Assembly (NCBI GenBank): GCA_037305845.1
Contig: CP147778.1
Span: 1,452,259-1,484,258 of the forward strand
Direction of reading: 5' to 3'
DNA: 32,000 nucleotides
Source of the DNA: Candidatus Freyarchaeum deiterrae
GTDB lineage: Archaea; Asgardarchaeota; Jordiarchaeia; Jordiarchaeales; Jordiarchaeaceae
Below, in pieces: positions 1 through 31,414 of this stretch (position 1 is its first letter; every line of letters begins with the position of its first letter). The position numbers were made by a program, and so were the translations under genes. A model generated the notes under the pieces. It was not told the origin of the DNA, did no database searches, and was given only the letters and a program-made list of their open reading frames with translations.

Positions 1-782
1 TTGATGTCCTAGACCCCGTGAACCCGTGTGAACCATTACGGTAACCTGATTCTCACTTAATCCTAAGACCTTGGCTGCGTCTTGATCAAAAATTTTCTCT
101 ACGTATTGAATCTCGAGAAAATGATTACCTGCCCCTAATGTTCCCACTTGGGCAACCCCTCTCTCCTTTGCTTTGCTTGACACTTTTGAAGTGTTCGCTC
201 CCTCCAATTTTCCATTCGCTTCGCAGTTTAAAGCGTCCTCTTCCCATCCGAAACCGTTTTTAATAGACCAGCTAACGCCCTCGGAAAGAATTCCGTCCAA
301 GTCTCTAGCTGAGAGTTTAATTTTTCTCTTAGATCCCAAACCACTAGGCACATTATCAAACATTTCTTTTGTTAACTCTTTTATCTTGGATTCAGCGTCC
401 TTCCTCTCAAGATTGGTTTTAATCACTCTAACACCGCAATTGATATCATACCCAACCCCGCCGGGACTTACAACTCCGTTGTCCTCAATATCAGTAGCGG
501 CTACTCCGCCTATTGGAAAACCGTAGCCCTGATGAGCTTCCCTCAGTAGAGGACATCCTCTCCTGAATCGGGCAGGGTTACGGAGAATTTTTTTATGCCT
601 GGCAGGCTGCATACGTTAACGGCTTGGATTAGAGTTTGATCCTTATAAATATCTTTAAGCAATACCTCGTTTGCAATAATTCTGGCTGGAACCCTCATGT
701 AGGGTCGATAATCTTTAGGAATCTCCCAAATGTTTTTATTAATCTGCTTAAGAGGAATATTTCTTGTACTCAAAACAATCAC
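1..782 (-). CDS. rtcB: RNA-splicing ligase RtcB, 5' part of the gene (continues past the left edge). Proposed exons are 782..567 and 537..1, separated by a 29-nt insert.
   Basis: Minus-strand translation 782->567 gives MIVLSTRNIPLKQINKNIWEIPKDYRPYMRVPARIIANEVLL...NVCSLPGIKKFSVTLPD. Translation 537->1, in a different frame, gives AHQGYGFPIGGVAATDIEDNGVVSPGGVGYDINCGVRVIKTNL...GAGNHFLEIQYVEKIF...VMVHTGSRGLGHQ. These are hallmark RtcB motifs, and the frame stays open to position 1. Confidence 0.85.
538..566 (-). other. Putative BHB-type mini-intron (29 nt) in the rtcB pre-mRNA
   Basis: RNA reads CCCG-AU|U-CAGGAGAGG-AUGU-CCUCUACUG-AGGG-AA|G. The inner helix is 9 bp with one G.A mismatch. The central helix is CCC/GGG plus one G.A pair, flanked by 3-nt bulges on opposite strands. 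Cutting after the 2nd bulge nucleotide removes 29 nt, including a UGA and the frameshift, and gives ...SVTLPD-A-HQGYGFPIGG. Confidence 0.55.
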
Positions 783-4244: not shown

Positions 4245-4282
4245 ATTTTTTGATAATTATATTTCTCTTTATAATATAAAAG
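4245..4282. repeat. Copy 1 of a 38-nt AT-rich imperfect direct repeat
   Basis: attttttgataattatatttctctttataatataaaag versus copy 2 atattttgataattatatttctttttataatttgaaag, about 33/38 identical by eye. Confidence 0.7.
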
Positions 4283-4356
4283 TTTTTATGAAAGATTAAA
4301 TTTTTCGATATATATGATTTTCAAGTTATTACATATATTTTTACAAGAAATATTAG

Positions 4357-4394
4357 ATATTTTGATAATTATATTTCTTTTTATAATTTGAAAG
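4357..4394. repeat. Copy 2 of the 38-nt AT-rich imperfect direct repeat
   Basis: Same unit as 4245..4282, offset by 112 bp, inside the 285-bp intergenic region upstream of the AMMECR1 gene. Confidence 0.7.
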
Positions 4395-8634: not shown

Positions 8635-9075
8635 ATGGTTGGTAAATCACCCAAAGGCGAGTTTGCAGCTCGTACACTCAAGACAAAAAGTAAAAACGCG
8701 AGATGGAAAGACAGATATTATAAACGTAGAATGTTACACCTGGACGTTAAAGCAGACCCCTTAGAGGGCGCTCCGCAGGCTCGAGCCATCGTGCTTGAAA
8801 AGGTTGGAGTGGAATGCAAACAGCCAAACTCTTCCATTAGAAAATGCGTCCGAGTACAACTCATTAAGAACGGTAAGCAGATTACGGCTTTCCTACCGGG
8901 CGATGGTGCATTAAACTTTGTTGATGAACATGACGAAGTCATTGTAGCGGGTATAGGCGGAGCTAGAGGCGGTGCCTTTGGTGATATACCCGGAGTGAGA
9001 TGGAAGGTTGTTAAGGTCAACGGAGTGTCTTTAGAAGCCCTTCTTATAGGAAAGAGAGAAAAACCAATAAGGTAA
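8635..9075 (+). CDS. rps12: 30S ribosomal protein S12
   Basis: [30 protein letters not shown]...[13 protein letters not shown] is canonical archaeal S12, 146 aa. Confidence 0.95.
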
Positions 9076-9166
9076 GGATTATTCCCAAAATTATCTTAAA
9101 TTATAATTAATGTTAACACTAAGACGAAATAATCAGCATTTTCCACAAAAAGAGGTAAGTAATGAG

Positions 9167-9733
9167 ATGAGCGAAATCAAAGTATTTGGAAAATGGATAA
9201 CAGATGATGTTGAAGTGCATGATGTAGGACTAAGAGGAAGTATTAATCTCACTCCAAAATATGTTCCTCATACTGACGGCCGGCATGAACATAGAAGATT
9301 TATGAAAGCCCGGGTTTTTATAGTAGAGAGGCTGATTAACAAGCTACAGAACCCTGGACGAAATGCTGGCAAAAAAATGAAGGCCCTTAACATTGTCAGA
9401 CTCACTTTTGAAATTATTAATATAAAGACCGGGGAAAATCCTTTACAAGTCCTAGTTAATGCTGTAGAAAACGCGGCTCCTAGAGAAGAAACCACAAGAA
9501 TCAGTTACGGTGGAATTGTTTACCATCAAGCGGTGGACGTCTCTCCCCTGAGGCGAGTGGATCTTGCCTTAAGGTTTATAACAAATGCAGCCAGAAAAGC
9601 AAGTTTTGGTACACAGAAAACCATAGAGGAATGCTTAGCAGACGAATTAATTTCAGCGGCCAATAATGAAACTAAAAGCAGTGCGGTAATGAGGAAAGAA
9701 GAAAAAGAGCGGATAGCAACATCAGTACGATAA
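9167..9733 (+). CDS. rps7: 30S ribosomal protein S7
   Basis: MSEIKVFGKW...PREETTRISYGGIVYHQAVDVSPLRRVDLALR matches S7. I prefer the ATG at 9167 (GAGG upstream) over the ORF-track start at 9110, because the upstream 19 residues match nothing in S7. Confidence 0.85.
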   Translation: MSEIKVFGKWITDDVEVHDVGLRGSINLTPKYVPHTDGRHEHRRFMKARVFIVERLINKLQNPGRNAGKKMKALNIVRLTFEIINIKTGENPLQVLVNAVENAAPREETTRISYGGIVYHQAVDVSPLRRVDLALRFITNAARKASFGTQKTIEECLADELISAANNETKSSAVMRKEEKERIATSVR

Positions 9734-16890: not shown

Positions 16891-18255
16891 TTATGTATTT
16901 GTGTCTACACCACCCTGAAGTATTTGGTAACCATTATAGGGCTCCCGGGAAGTTATTTCTCCACATAAGTTAGTAGTCATTTGTTTGTATATTTCTTCCA
17001 TGTTTTTTGTATGCCCTAGAATATAGATCAATTTTACATAAGCAGTTTCAGGTAACATATTCTCACAGGGAATTACTCCTATTTTTAGAAGATCTCTTCC
17101 TCTTTCATACACATTCATTCCTACAAATCCGTAAAGGCATTGCGAGGTCATCGCTATGGGGATATTTTCTTCTTTAGCTCGGGTTAAAGAATCCATTAGA
17201 GTTTTGGGGCAGTGACCTAAACCGGTACCAGCCAGAACAATTCCATGATATTTTGAATCTATAAGGTGGTTAATAATATCGGCTTCTATTCCAGGATACG
17301 TAAATACCAATGCAACTTTAGGGTCTAGTTTTGTATCCGATTCCACCTCGCCTTGCTTCTTCCTTTTTTTATAATCGTTTCTAATCATTTTTATCTCATT
17401 ATTCAGCACTAACCCAAGAGGGATATCTCCAATTGTACGAAAGGCGTCTCTTCTACTGGTATGCATTTTTCTAACTCTAGTTCCCCTGTGAATCAAGTTA
17501 TAGTCGTCGCTACTATGCCCATGCATACAAATAACCACTTCAGCTATATCGCTAAACGCGGCAACTCTAGCTGCGGAAATCAGATTTATCGCTGCATCAC
17601 TTGATGGTCTGTCACTACTCCTCTGGCTTCCAACTAAAACTACTGGAACTGGTAAATCTTTTAGCATAAATGATAACGCTGAAGAAGTAAAGTGCATAGT
17701 ATCTGTGCCATGGGGAATAATGATTCCGTCTACTCCCGAGTTTATTTGTTCAGCTGCCATTTCCGCAATTTTAACCCAGTATTCCGGTCTCATATCTTCT
17801 GAAAATATTTCAAACAAGAGTTCTGTTTTTAGATTACAGACTTCTGCAAGTTCTGGAACCGCACTAAAAAGCTCCTGAGGAGTAAAAGCGGGCATAACAG
17901 CCCCGGTTCTGTAATCGAGCCTACTCGCCACCGTACCCCCAGTGCCAATAAGAAATACGTTTGGTTTCTTGGAATCGAACTCAACTTCTATTTCGGGGAT
18001 GGCGTAAAGACCGGGGTTATATCCTATCTCTTTGATTTCTGTATCATCTGTAATTTTTACTCCGATGTTGTAGCCAGTGTCTAGTTTAAGAACTAGATGC
18101 TGATCATCACCCATATCGGATCTTGGTAGTAATACTCCCTTGTATGTTGCTTCAGGTGTAACTACTTCAATAACACTCCAAATCTTGACTTCTGCGAACT
18201 CTAGCTTTTTTCTAACAAATCCCCAATATCCTTGTAATTCCTCTTTTATGGTCAT
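16891..18255 (-). CDS. gatD: Glutamyl-tRNA(Gln) amidotransferase subunit D
   Basis: Asparaginase-like core (GTGGTVASRLDYRTG, HGTDTMHFTSSALSF) with a GatD-type N-terminal domain. The start lies 2 nt after the gatE stop. Confidence 0.9.
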   Translation of the reverse strand: MTIKEELQGYWGFVRKKLEFAEVKIWSVIEVVTPEATYKGVLLPRSDMGDDQHLVLKLDTGYNIGVKITDDTEIKEIGYNPGLYAIPEIEVEFDSKKPNVFLIGTGGTVASRLDYRTGAVMPAFTPQELFSAVPELAEVCNLKTELLFEIFSEDMRPEYWVKIAEMAAEQINSGVDGIIIPHGTDTMHFTSSALSFMLKDLPVPVVLVGSQRSSDRPSSDAAINLISAARVAAFSDIAEVVICMHGHSSDDYNLIHRGTRVRKMHTSRRDAFRTIGDIPLGLVLNNEIKMIRNDYKKRKKQGEVESDTKLDPKVALVFTYPGIEADIINHLIDSKYHGIVLAGTGLGHCPKTLMDSLTRAKEENIPIAMTSQCLYGFVGMNVYERGRDLLKIGVIPCENMLPETAYVKLIYILGHTKNMEEIYKQMTTNLCGEITSREPYNGYQILQGGVDTNT

Positions 18256-18257
18256 TA

Positions 18258-20207
18258 TTATCCCTCTAACCTTTGTTTTAATTTTTTACGAAGGAGTTCA
18301 GCCACTACTTTTCCGTCGATGTTGCCCCTAACTTTTTCCATCACTTTACCCATCATAGGGCTAAACGCTCTTTCTCCGTTTTTTTCTATAAAGTCGCTGC
18401 TTTCATCAAGTATTTCATCGATTATTCCTTCAAGTTCCTCCGTGGTAATGGTTTCCAGTTTCAATTCTTTGAGAGCGTCCTCAACTGTAATTGAGGGAGA
18501 TTTTCCAAGTACTCGAAGGACTTCCTCCACTGCCTCTTTTGCAATTTTACCTTCAGAGAGAAATTTGAAAGTCTCTTTAATTTTTTCTTGAGGTATTTCA
18601 TCTGTTTGAATGTTCTCTCTATCCAGTGCTTTCATAGTTTGAAGAAGAGATACAGCAACGATCGTCGGATCTATTTTAATTTCTTTAACAATTTCCATGA
18701 AAAGCTCCATTTTTCCAGATCCCATCAATTCCTCTGCGAACAATTCGTTTATCTTGTATTTCTTTGCCAAGCGTTTCTGAACCACCCAGGGATATTCTGG
18801 AAGGTTTTTTCTAATTGATTCTACTCTTTCTTTTTCTATAACCAGTGGTGGCGAATCTGTATCGGGATATAGACGCGCCCCGCCATGTAACTCTCTTAAG
18901 AATTCGCTGTTGCCATTTTCTAGGGCTCTTCTGGTTTCTCTTAGTACACCCTTTAAGGCTCGCTTGGCGCGGCTAACGGCGTTATCCAATGCCTTTTGTG
19001 CTTTACTTTCATCTCCAATAACAATTGCATATGAGTCCATCTCGTCCAGAGCGAGAAAGCTTCGCAGCTTTGAATCCTCTTCCACACTGATGTTGTATTT
19101 ATCAAGTTTTTCATCGGAATGGATAATGCCCTTTAGTCCGGTAATCACTGTTACTCTCTCAGCGATTTCCTTTCCAAAACTTTTTCCTGGTTGAACCTCT
19201 TTGCCTAATAATCCAGCAAATTTGGGCAGCTTTACCGACAGCACTTTTTCTTCCTTTTTCTTATTTTTAATAATCTTGCATTTGGTAGAAGCGAAAATCT
19301 TGGAAGCATCTTTATATTCCGGTGAAAAGTCTTCTTCCTTTACCCCTCGTTCTAATAGCTGCTTCTTAATGTCTAGTAGTGCAACTTGTCTTATTGTCTC
19401 ATTTTCAGCTAGTCTAGGGATCCATTCTAACTTCTGGACTCCCTTGATTTCAACCCGCTCACCGCCCTCTATACTGACGTTAATATCCTGTCTTATGGTT
19501 CCAAGTCCCCTCTTTACCTTCTCTGTTGATCGTATAAGCATCCCTATCTTGTAAGCGGTTTTAAGAATTTCATCCGGATTTGTTATTTCCGGTAATGTAA
19601 CGATTTCCACTAGGGGAATTCCCAATCTGTCTATTCTATAATAAACTGTTTTCTCTTCTTCCCTAATTTTTCTAGCAGCATCCTCTTCTATACAAATAGT
19701 GGAGACTCCGATTTTCTTACCGTCGAGTGGTATGAAGCCGTCTGTTCCGATGATTAATGTGCGCTGAAATCCACAGGGAACTGATCCATCGAGATAGTTT
19801 TTTCGTAGGATGTGCAATTCGTCTATTACCTTTGCATTAAACAGGAGTGAAATTTCAATACCTATGTCTATCGCTTCTTGGGAGATGTCAAAAGGAGGTG
19901 TTTGATGCTTGCAGGTGTTCTACATGCAAGTTTCATCTATCTCATATGTGCAGTTAACATCATTAAATCCTTCATATACGATAGTACGTCCTTTTTCATA
20001 CTCAACTAGCATTGCTTCATCATACTTCCCCATCTCACCTAATACTGGTCTAAAATATCTCTTAACTAGAAATTCGGGTTCATCGGTTTTTAGAATTGGC
20101 TGACAGAGACAGAATAGTTTGCGATTGGTTAGAAGCTCCTGGTGAATTTCAATTCCTGCCTTGAATCCTAGTTTTTCGTATTCTAGCTCCAATAGAACCG
20201 CCTCCAA
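18258..20207 (-). CDS. gatE: Glutamyl-tRNA(Gln) amidotransferase subunit E. Proposed exons are 20207..19932 and 19901..18258, about 639 aa once the 30-nt insert is removed.
   Basis: The N-terminal ORF (YEKLGFKAGIEIHQEL...CTYEIDE) and the C-terminal ORF (LRKNYLDGSVPCGFQRT...EEDAARKI...) are in the same frame. They are separated only by a single TAG (19920..19922) inside an 11-codon stretch that interrupts the GatE/GatB-type DE(E)PP motif. Confidence 0.85.
19902..19931 (-). other. Putative BHB mini-intron (30 nt) in the gatE pre-mRNA
   Basis: RNA reads GAUG-AA|A-CUUGCA-UGUAGAACACC-UGCAAG-CAUC-AA|A. It has a perfect 4-bp central helix (GAUG/CAUC), two 3-nt bulges on opposite strands, a 6-bp inner helix and an 11-nt loop carrying the UAG. 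The outer helix is weak. Splicing gives ...YEIDE-TPPFDISQEAIDIG... Confidence 0.7.
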
Positions 20208-26604: not shown

Positions 26605-27183
26605 CTAACCTACAGGCGATACCCATCCTATTTCATTGGAAAGTGTTTCTATAGTAATATAGGAACAATCTGATTTTTTAATATGAGCATAGGAAATGGT
26701 TTGGGAGGGAGCTTTGCCCAAATACTCGGGTACGCCTAGATAAACTCTTAGATGCTTGTAGGCAGCCTTTCCTTTAGGTCTCTTCCATGGAAGCATGCCT
26801 CGAATGGTACGTTTAACTATTCGGTCGGGTCTTCGAAAATGGAATGGCCCCTTCAAAGGTTGTGTGTGTGTTTTAATTTGTAATTTCCATTTGTATCGGG
26901 ATATAATTGCTTTTTTGGTACCAGTAATTACTGCTTTCTCAGCATTAATGACGGCTACCCTTTGTCCTTGCACAAGATGTGAGGCGACCACGCTTGCCAA
27001 CCTTCCGAGAATAAGGTTAGTGGCATCAATTACGACTAGGTTGTCTAGGGGGAGGGAGCCTCTAATTTTCTTTTCGCGGGGTTGTCTTGTTTTTTCTGAT
27101 TTTTTCTCTATTTTCTTCTCTTCTACTGATTCCGTTTCTTTCTTTTTTCCAGATTTTTTGACTTGTTTTGACATTTTACCCAC
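26605..27183 (-). CDS. rpl13: 50S ribosomal protein L13, with a possible ~45-aa Lys/Glu-rich N-terminal extension
   Basis: The core VVIDATNLILGRLAS...INAEKAVITG...RPDRIVKRTIRGMLP matches L13. No ATG lies between 27183 and the core, so either the extension is real or an internal non-ATG start is used. Confidence 0.85.
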   Translation of the reverse strand: MGKMSKQVKKSGKKKETESVEEKKIEKKSEKTRQPREKKIRGSLPLDNLVVIDATNLILGRLASVVASHLVQGQRVAVINAEKAVITGTKKAIISRYKWKLQIKTHTQPLKGPFHFRRPDRIVKRTIRGMLPWKRPKGKAAYKHLRVYLGVPEYLGKAPSQTISYAHIKKSDCSYITIETLSNEIGWVSPVG

Positions 27184-30107: not shown

Positions 30108-30139
30108 ATAAATATACAAGGCTGTAAACTAAATAGCAA

Positions 30140-30284
30140 GCAGGGATAGCCAAGTGGTAAACGTTAAACGTATCCGCAACGGCGCAGATAGTCTACAATG
30201 GTAGATAGCGTAAGCCTGGAGAACTTTCTTGGAAGCCTGTGATCCGTAAGGATCGCGTGGGTTCAAATCCCACTCCCTGCGCCA
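30140..30284 (+). tRNA. tRNA-Ser (anticodon GGA) precursor with three introns and a genomically encoded CCA
   Basis: Acceptor stem GCAGGGA/UCCCUGC, discriminator G, CCA at 30282..30284, T-arm GUGGG-UUCAAAU-CCCAC, long variable arm GAUCC-GUAA-GGAUC. Removing 30160..30179 (20 nt, D-loop), 30188..30213 (26 nt, 5' strand of the anticodon stem) and 30222..30233 (12 nt, position 37/38) leaves an 84-nt class II tRNA. Its anticodon arm is CAGGC-CUGGAGA-GCCUG. Confidence 0.8.
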
Positions 30285-30371
30285 TTATTTGTTCCTTTTA
30301 ATATAACTTGAAAAGAAATTCCATCTCTAAATTAAAATTCTTAAATCTTTAAAACTTGAGTCTAGTACTTT

Positions 30372-31414
30372 CTATTGGGTTTTTTCTTCTTTGTGTTTTT
30401 TCCATAGTGAGGGGTAGGTTCCGGGTTCCATTAGTACTCTGTCTACTTCTACTGCGATTCCGTGATTTGAAGAGTACATTTCTTCGCTGCTCATTTTTGA
30501 GCTGCCTAAAGCTACTGCTTCATTTTTGAGTGTGAAAATAGCAACAAGGTTCCTTACACCTATTTCGCTCTCTAGCTTTACTATTCCTGGGACTGTTAGG
30601 TTGGCGCCATGGCAGATAGAGTCCACGGCTGAGTCGCGTATGAATATTTTGGGTATGTGTTCTAATGCCTTTTCCATGGGTTGTATTATGTTTCTTAAGA
30701 AGGATTCATCTCCATCTTCCTTCCAAAAATGGTAAGCATCAATAACATCATGCAGGTTTGCAAGAGTATCTTCTTTGAAAGGCCCGGTTCGGGTTCGTCT
30801 GAGTTCTTTCATATGGGCGCCGCAGCCCAAGATTTCACCAATATCGTGGCAGAGCTTTCTTATGTAGGTACCCGCCTCGCAACCAACGCGAAGAAGCCCG
30901 TTTCGAGCCTCCATCTCTTTTAATTCAATATAGTATATTTCCCTAATTCTAAGTCTTCTTCTAACGGAGGAGCGGAGTGGTGGGCGTTGATATATTGGCC
31001 CTACGAGCTCATTTACAACGTTCCTGAACTTCTCTTCTGGCACGTCGCCGTGTAGTTGAATGACGCAGACGTATTCTTTCCCCGCCGGAAGAAGAGTCTG
31101 AACCACTTTGGTTGCTGATTCCAAAGCTACAGGGAGTACCCCGGTGACTTTGGGATTTCACTACTCCTCGCAAAATGCTAGAGGAGTTCTAGTGTCCCAG
31201 AGTGACCCGCCTTTTGAATATTGAGAATTTTTTTAACCCAGCTAACTACTTCATGCGAAGTTGGGCCAGGGGGCTTATCCACATTGATTATACCATTTTT
31301 TATGTATTCTTCTATTGGGCGTTGGTTGGGTGGGGTTCCATACGTGGGGTCTGAAGTTGCTTCGGCTTTTTCAATTAATTCTCTTTTCTTGTCACTTGGT
31401 AAAAAGTGGTCCAT
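30372..31414 (-). CDS. cbf5: tRNA/rRNA pseudouridine synthase Cbf5 (H/ACA RNP catalytic subunit). Exons are 31414..31189 and 31156..30372, 336 aa after splicing.
   Basis: Exon 1 ends ...[14 protein letters not shown] and exon 2 reads (D)[31 protein letters not shown]..., followed by a PUA domain. The catalytic GTLDP motif forms only when the 32-nt insert is removed. Confidence 0.9.
31157..31188 (-). other. BHB intron (32 nt) in the cbf5 pre-mRNA
   Basis: RNA reads GGGA-CACU-AG|A-ACUCCUC-UAGCAUUUUGC-GAGGAGU-AGUG-AA|A-UCCC. It has a 4-5 bp outer helix, a perfect 4-bp central helix, two 3-nt bulges, a 7-bp inner helix and an 11-nt loop. Canonical cuts join CUAG+AUCCC into CUA GAU CCC (L-D-P). 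Confidence 0.85.

Follow-up and report, generated by a model that had tools for sequence, protein, structure and literature searches.

Within a 32,000-nucleotide (nt) stretch of the Asgard archaeon Candidatus Freyarchaeum deiterrae (contig CP147778.1, positions 1,452,259 to 1,484,258; hereafter the window), gatE, which encodes a subunit of a tRNA-dependent amidotransferase, is interrupted by a short insert carrying an in-frame stop codon. Comparison with relatives and homologues suggests that this insert, 30 nt at 19902..19931, is an archaeal bulge–helix–bulge (BHB)-type intron in the gatE pre-mRNA, a reading to which we assign a probability of about 85%. The novelty lies in gene and lineage; as to mechanism, we propose the one known from cbf5. 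To our knowledge, among archaeal protein-coding genes an endonuclease-spliced intron has for more than 20 years been established for cbf5 alone, and there for Crenarchaeota only. The parts of gatE, all on the minus strand, are as follows.

18258..20207, minus strand: gatE
19932..20207, minus strand: gatE exon 1, 92 codons with a TTG start, ending ...TYEIDE (from the list of open reading frames and the translation)
19902..19931, minus strand: putative BHB-type mini-intron ACUUGCAUGUAGAACACCUGCAAGCAUCAA, 30 nt, a 10-codon gap against GatE structures, with a covarying fold
19934..19937, minus strand: 5' strand of the central helix, GAUG (last base of the Ile codon plus the Asp codon), pairing with 19904..19907
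19931..19933, minus strand: 5' bulge AAA, predicted cut 19932/19931, invariant in 11 of 11 variants, helices on either side
19908..19930, minus strand: inner hairpin, CUUGCA, 11-nt loop UGUAGAACACC, UGCAAG; the stem has 8 base pairs (bp) in most relatives
19920..19922, minus strand: in-frame stop TAG at the start of the loop
19904..19907, minus strand: 3' strand of the central helix, CAUC, intronic
19901..19903, minus strand: 3' 'bulge' AAA, predicted cut 19902/19901, invariant, with no conserved outer helix
18258..19901, minus strand: gatE exon 2, beginning TPPFDISQEAIDIG..., stop codon included

All coordinates and sequences given for this insert in a preliminary description, made from the letters of the window, proved correct. 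The two open reading frames (ORFs) of gatE (19920..20207 and 18258..19817) lie in one frame, divided by the TAG, and the minus-strand RNA reads GAUG (19937-19934), AAA (19933-19931), CUUGCA (19930-19925), UGUAGAACACC (19924-19914), UGCAAG (19913-19908), CAUC (19907-19904) and AAA (19903-19901). Excising 19902..19931 yields ...YEIDETPPFDIS..., and the junction peptide predicted for spliced GatE contains YEIDETPPFDISQEAIDIGIEISLLFNAK. The preliminary description had placed the cuts between bulge nucleotides 2 and 3, and these cuts indeed take out exactly 30 nt, stop included, and result in the required junction; because both bulges are AAA, four neighbouring cut registers give the identical product. 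It had also stated that GatE and GatB homologues are contiguous at this spot, which the solved structures bear out. In the GatE structures of M. thermautotrophicus (2d6f) and P. abyssi (1zq1), the alignment gap corresponds to exactly the 10 inserted codons, flanked by veaDE and ePPhpl. Compared with the NCBI GatE equivalog profile, the spliced protein scores 719.7 bits (cut-off 456) over positions 3-628 of 630, and its junction, YEIDE/TPPFD, is identical to that of intronless Loki-type genes (DETPPF).

The preliminary description had proposed inspecting the same locus in related genomes. Sites L001-L005 came from a genome collection, and relatives were also sought with the exon-1 peptide in a database of 5.8 billion proteins, where the search returned seven orphan gene calls of 90-112 amino acids (aa) ending in DETCM, DETCR or DETYM. 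The DNA of six of the seven (L010-L019) was examined, the one left out being P0005, the Freyarchaeota protein KIH09_10885. Both the insert and its fold were found in all sampled Jordarchaeia/Freyarchaeia, which are alternative names for one Asgard class. In the species-level genome collection, the nearest gatE locus is that of Candidatus Jordarchaeum madagascariense (85% identity), followed by other Jordarchaeia/Freyarchaeota bins at 77-78% and then by a Promethearchaeota (Loki) locus at 47%. Altogether there are eleven distinct versions of the insert on at least 16 contigs, with exon-1 identities from 94% down to 63%. The versions are built alike: exon and insert pair in a 4-bp helix, whose first strand is followed by AAA in all of them and then by a stem of 6-8 bp capped by a loop of 6-11 nt; the other strand of the helix comes next, and AAA, likewise invariant, comes last.

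The insert is absent from the Loki-type locus L006, from proteins P0126 and P0127 (DETPPF) and P0008 (59% identity to exon 1), from a Micrarchaeota locus (DEEPPH) and from the euryarchaeal GatE structures. A query with the junction-spanning GatE sequence against the 5.8 billion proteins returned nothing above 70% identity, and hence no intronless or cDNA-derived close relative; all close relatives sampled are therefore interrupted. From these distributions, the simplest history is probably one gain in the ancestor of Jordarchaeia/Freyarchaeia followed by retention.

The fold covaries among the relatives. In an alignment of the 11 variants (A1), 97% of cells are paired and two-sided changes occur in 5 of the 12 pairs, 4 of them among the 8 inner-stem pairs. 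The covariation score is 0.291, against 0.152 ± 0.023 for shuffled alignments, and none of 500 shuffles reaches 0.291. When the 3' partners were slid by 1-3 columns as a control, no pair with two-sided changes was found at five of the six offsets and a single one at +3. The central helix GAUG/CAUC is exactly 4 bp long, as expected of a BHB, and all 44 of its cells are paired across the 11 variants; its changes are G-C to G-U, one U-A to U-G, and one U-A to C-G double change that spans exon and insert. The last of these occurs in L010-L012, where the exon Asp codon changes from GAU to GAC and the insert changes from CAUC to CGUC to match, and is the most telling of the changes.

With regard to the class of the motif, the preliminary description had given a perfect 4-bp helix flanked by two 3-nt bulges. 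This stands for the helix and for the 5' AAA, an invariant true bulge between two helices; the 3' AAA is invariant and rightly placed 3' of the helix, but the sequence beyond it is unpaired and does not close it into a bulge of 3 nt. The outer exon flanks GAGAUA/CACCUC could form 4 of 6 pairs here, fewer in relatives and 2 of 6 in L002. Likewise, the 6-bp stem and 11-nt loop described earlier are right for the window, but most relatives have an 8-bp stem and a 6-7 nt loop. The strict hBHBh' form is defined by flanking helices on both sides, of which the gatE insert has the inner one, of 6-8 bp, but no conserved outer one. With no such helix to close the 3' AAA, the motif as predicted is of the relaxed class and not a strict bulge–helix–bulge; coding constraint on the exon may explain why the outer helix is absent.

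Several points weigh against an intron. Splicing of gatE is a prediction from sequence. With the 3' AAA unclosed and the hBHBh' form incomplete, cleavage at that site would need an enzyme of relaxed specificity. RNAfold of 19880..19960 places the minimum free energy (MFE) structure in a register slightly off that of the BHB, with z = -1.1, which is non-significant against shuffles. The bare motif also arises by chance a few times per 32 kilobases (kb): a strict BHB scan of the window gave 8 matches, against 3.8 ± 2.2 in dinucleotide shuffles, and therefore the presence of the motif by itself is no evidence. Finally, the shared ancestry of the relatives feeds part of the shuffle statistic.

Against these points stands evidence of other kinds. 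Compensatory changes and the slid controls are free of the shared-ancestry problem, and we relied on covariation instead of the MFE fold because MFE folding treats 3-nt bulges poorly. At the shuffle rate, a given site has a motif by chance with a probability of about 6e-5; with four registers acceptable at the single spot that restores the protein, this comes to about 2e-4. The case beyond chance is made because the motif coincides with the required junction, covaries and has untranslatable variants. At the level of sequence, what is established is the insert, its position, its covarying fold, its untranslatability and the in-frame translation of the downstream part. A permissive scan that allowed G-U pairs gave hundreds of matches and was uninformative. 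Two of the strict matches were considered as introns in their own right and rejected: 26993..27019 lies inside the conserved L13 sequence DATNLILGRLAS, and removal of 17012..17064 (53 nt, in gatD) would shift the frame of an intact ORF.

Explanations that dispense with an intron are together improbable. Were the TAG read through, as pyrrolysine (Pyl) or another amino acid, the 10 codons would be a lineage-specific protein insertion, and the insert of the window is indeed in frame with a single TAG; Pyl is also used by some Asgard lineages (Sifarchaeia). The stop stands at the same codon in every variant, yet its identity differs: most variants have TAG, L016/L017 have TAA and L010-L012 have TGA, and L002-L005 carry two stops (TAG plus TAA). 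The insert of L013 is 29 nt long and shifts the frame; minus these 29 nt, the downstream part again reads TPPFEISQEALEIG. Variation in the insert tracks base pairing and not codon periodicity. Ordinary genes in the window end in TAG, TAA or TGA, with TAG terminating five (Elp3, AMMECR1, Mut7-C, L13 and cbf5), and in Jordarchaeia selenocysteine recoding has been reported whereas the pyrrolysine system is reported lost (PMC9723677). A Pyl recoding site would be UAG-only and accompanied by pylTSBCD; given three kinds of stop, double stops and a 29-nt form, such a site was rejected and the probability of recoding is negligible. The preliminary description had named read-through of a reassigned TAG and an assembly error as outcomes that could overturn the intron, and both are excluded, the former by these variants and the latter by the occurrence of the insert in at least 16 independent contigs from NCBI, ENA, JGI and Logan assemblies. 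Decay into a pseudogene, which an in-frame stop within an essential gene would normally indicate, fares no better: both exons are under purifying selection down to 63% identity, the adjacent gatD is intact, and no second gatE or intronless copy was seen in close relatives. A pseudogene or artefact is thus as negligible as recoding. The small size of 30 nt and the stop codons also dismiss an intein or a self-splicing intron.

Split genes occur in some archaea, and gene callers do give two ORFs here, so that polypeptides of about 95 and about 520 aa might assemble after translation, with the hairpin serving as a terminator or punctuation. The second polypeptide would need a start of its own, and no in-frame ATG, GTG or TTG follows the insert for 14-105 codons, depending on the variant. 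Over the first 28 codons after the insert, 12, 3 and 28 columns vary at codon positions 1, 2 and 3, respectively, and the peptide is conserved and aligns with GatE/GatB. Because variation is codon-periodic and an in-frame start is missing, this stretch can be translated only as a continuation of exon 1; a downstream start would remove TPPF...IDE, which aligns to conserved GatE/GatB residues. A split gene also leaves unexplained the covariation of the exon/insert helix and the pair of invariant AAA two nucleotides from the junction, and we give it a slim chance. A slimmer one goes to programmed bypassing, in which the ribosome would take off at Thr ACU and land on Thr ACA 30 nt on, making the same protein from uncut RNA. 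Like bypass elements (T4 gene 60; mitochondrial byps), gatE has a short coding gap with a hairpin and a stop to skip, and the codons flanking the gap are both Thr in all variants. Bypass elements need matching take-off and landing codons, with no RNA cutting. In gatE the two codons are the same in only 4 of the 11 variants and unequal in the other 7 (ACU/ACA or ACG/ACA). The stop lies two codons past the putative take-off site instead of adjoining it, and the codon right before the stop (AUG or AGG) has no matching landing codon. Moreover, bypassing has no requirement for a 4-bp helix with two 3-nt bulges at fixed spacing, and the cbf5 insert of the same architecture splits a codon (G/AU), its crenarchaeal counterpart being spliced as RNA.

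For an intron in gatE, the proposed mechanism would run as follows. Exon GAUG and intronic CAUC would pair into the 4-bp central helix, with an AAA bulge and the 6-8 bp intron hairpin on one side and the second AAA directly 3' of the helix on the other. The tRNA-splicing endonuclease EndA, of the heterotetrameric broad-specificity type reported for Asgard archaea, would cut either strand two nucleotides 3' of the helix; RtcB would then ligate the exons to give ...YEIDE/TPPFD..., and the released 30-mer would probably be circularised. Unspliced gatE mRNA would halt at the in-loop stop and yield only a 95-aa fragment, never GatE plus 10 residues. We infer EndA cleavage and RtcB ligation of the gatE mRNA, and likewise any role of the in-loop stop. 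In cbf5 introns, the cut separates bulge residues 2 and 3 (PMC2738675), and the same rule applied to gatE gives the junction demanded by the alignment in 30-nt and 29-nt forms alike, with the frame restored. In four other Asgard lineages, EndA is reported to be an (alpha-beta)2 enzyme with the L1 loop tied to broad specificity (PMC5829648). In three complete Asgard genomes (1 Freyarchaeia and 2 Atabeyarchaeia), 92-95% of tRNA genes bear introns, often several per gene and many at non-canonical sites (PMC11291895). Because this EndA type and these tRNA intron loads are reported for Asgard archaea, machinery and habit are probably both present in the class. The window itself does not contain endA, for which no query was run, and its rtcB is present but interrupted.

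Two further genes of the window have inserts comparable to that of gatE. The one in cbf5 is of the strict type.

30372..31414, minus strand: cbf5
31157..31188, minus strand: cbf5 intron, 32 nt, frame-shifting, strict hBHBh'

The cbf5 intron is composed of an outer helix UGGGA/UCCCA, a central helix CACU/AGUG, bulges AGA and AAA, and a 7-bp inner stem. The preliminary description had likened the gatE insert to it, and the likeness was borne out, down to the 11-nt loop starting with UAG. It divides the catalytic Asp codon (G/AU), and the crenarchaeal cbf5 intron of Desulfurococcales and Sulfolobales is at the identical codon position (PMC2738675). Spliced Cbf5 scores 490.7 bits against its equivalog over positions 2-322 of 323. 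The exon-1 peptide found two further cbf5 loci with 31-nt and 24-nt versions at the same spot (L021, about 1720-1760, and L022, about 1700-1740). That the same cbf5 codon is interrupted in Asgard archaea and Crenarchaeota raises the question of whether the intron is ancient, transferred or the result of repeated insertion at a favoured site. From other lineages, Nezhaarchaeales among them, the cbf5 exon-1 search also brought up dozens of gene calls for truncated Cbf5 N termini.

The other insert interrupts the gene of the splicing ligase itself.

1..782, minus strand: rtcB, the splicing ligase, start near 782
538..566, minus strand: rtcB insert, 29 nt, frame-shifting, relaxed BHB-like CCC(G)/AUU/9-bp stem/(A)GGG/AAG

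Excision of 538..566 gives ...SVTLPD/AHQGYGFPIGGVAA... (PD/AHQGYGFPIGG), which aligns without gaps to P. horikoshii RtcB. The insert combines a hairpin of 9 bp with a helix, CCC(G)/(A)GGG, that pairs perfectly in relative L024 (CCCG/CGGG); the predicted cut on either strand is, as in gatE, two nucleotides 3' of the helix, with the 3' bulge enlarged to 8 nt. Among the RtcB loci compared, 30-nt versions were found only in the two closest metagenomic relatives (L023 and L024; 83% and 79% identity), and 78 other loci are without the insert. Because only these two share it, the rtcB insert looks younger than the gatE intron. On the strength of the sequence, rtcB is apparently a third archaeal protein gene with such an intron, and its mRNA would need its own ligase product to mature. 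A 117-aa ORF at 173..526 (plus strand) has no Pfam or NCBIfam match and is almost certainly not a gene, because it is antisense to rtcB exon 2.

All insert variants of gatE, cbf5 and rtcB (in the window and L001-L024) have a stop in the frame of the upstream exon within the first few codons. In gatE, the stop is always the fourth codon of the insert, with its identity varying. This fixed position suggests that selection maintains a safeguard by which translation of unspliced mRNA is cut short.

The closest known system is the crenarchaeal cbf5 pre-mRNA intron (Watanabe 2002; Yoshinari 2006; Yokobori 2009; PMC2738675). Like it, the gatE insert is tens of nucleotides long, lies in a protein-coding gene, is bounded by a BHB-type motif of exon and intron, and has its cuts predicted between bulge nucleotides 2 and 3. 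In Crenarchaeota, the majority of cbf5 introns count as 'unconventional' and depend on the hetero-oligomeric endonuclease (PMC2738675), and the gatE motif is relaxed as well. Both break a catalytically important conserved motif, and both are misannotated by gene callers as two ORFs or a frameshift. Unlike cbf5, gatE encodes an amidotransferase subunit, belongs to the Asgard class Jordarchaeia/Freyarchaeia, and has an insert of near-fixed length (30 nt, once 29) with its in-frame stop always at the same codon. Splicing of crenarchaeal cbf5 is backed by cDNA and in vitro work, whereas the gatE case is known from sequence.

Relaxed-BHB tRNA introns (HBh'/hBH/BHL; Thermoproteales and Asgard archaea) share with gatE the predicted EndA/RtcB pathway, the size range and a central helix with a 3-nt bulge, one bulge being poorly closed. 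Non-canonical tRNA introns are abundant in the lineage of the gatE host (PMC11291895). The host RNA in gatE is an mRNA, however, in which splicing competes with translation. The HAC1/XBP1 system resembles gatE in the protein-only, spliceosome-free removal of a very short, structure-defined mRNA intron that restores the frame, and in animals the XBP1 exons are joined by RtcB (review PMC13149111). It differs in that it uses the IRE1 nuclease and paired 7-nt loops instead of a BHB, and acts as a regulated stress switch.

Papers of 2018 and 2025 cite the cbf5 work alone for pre-mRNA substrates, and the Freyarchaeia genome paper treats tRNA introns only (PMC11291895). In the literature searched, with subscription-only papers outside it, neither gatE nor rtcB is described as carrying a BHB intron, and no mRNA intron of this type is reported for Asgard archaea. 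Alongside gatE and rtcB, cbf5 no longer looks like a single curiosity but like one member of a class, and this in an archaeon closely related to eukaryotes. Three such inserts occur in one 32-kb window, in rtcB, gatE and cbf5, which encode enzymes acting on tRNA or in guide RNA modification. A whole population of EndA/RtcB-spliced mini-introns in protein genes of Jordarchaeia/Freyarchaeia, with rtcB as a self-dependent circuit, is possible but rather doubtful. If true for gatE and rtcB, the tRNA-splicing machinery would be shown to accept mRNA as a regular substrate, and the self-dependence of rtcB would tie the expression of tRNA-handling enzymes to tRNA-splicing capacity. Protein-only mRNA splicing with an RtcB ligase, as in animal XBP1, would then exist in close relatives of eukaryotes and offer a test case for intron-rich RNA processing where coupling of transcription and translation is assumed. 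It would also explain recurrent 'broken' essential genes in Asgard bins, with bearing on completeness estimates and annotation; for this class, mini-introns that go unrecognised probably affect both annotations and marker-gene completeness estimates. Fragments of gatE and cbf5 exon 1 are deposited as 'hypothetical protein' in Jordarchaeaceae/Freyarchaeota bins (P0003, P0005 and P0023).

The window has a G+C content of 40% and contains archaeal information-processing genes: aIF5B, S6e, S12, S7, NusA, L30e, RpoA1/A2, GlmS, GatD, GatE, Elp3, L7Ae, S2, RpoN, S9, L13 and Cbf5, together with L14e, which is placed by gene order alone.

8635..9733: S12 and S7
16891..18255, minus strand: gatD, the partner subunit of GatE, directly downstream of gatE (NCBIfam GatD equivalog, 564.9 bits)

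ARAGORN and Rfam gave zero matches over the entire window. A tRNA-like gene that neither of them called lies at 30139..30285 (plus strand). Its acceptor stem is perfect (GCAGGGA/UCCCUGC), its T arm reads GUGGG-UUCAAAU-CCCAC, CCA is encoded, and a hairpin resembles a class-II variable arm; its length of about 147 nt is some 60 nt in excess. Short direct repeats within it (AGAUAG twice and AAGCCUG twice) may point to a number of small introns. When up to three segments bounded by BHB motifs were removed by brute force and the products given to ARAGORN, 417 mutually inconsistent solutions resulted, with no unique intron set. Between the Mut7-C and AMMECR1 genes, an AT-rich intergenic stretch at 4267..4380 has long nested palindromes (e.g. 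AAGAAATAT...ATATTTCTT) and may be a promoter or terminator region.

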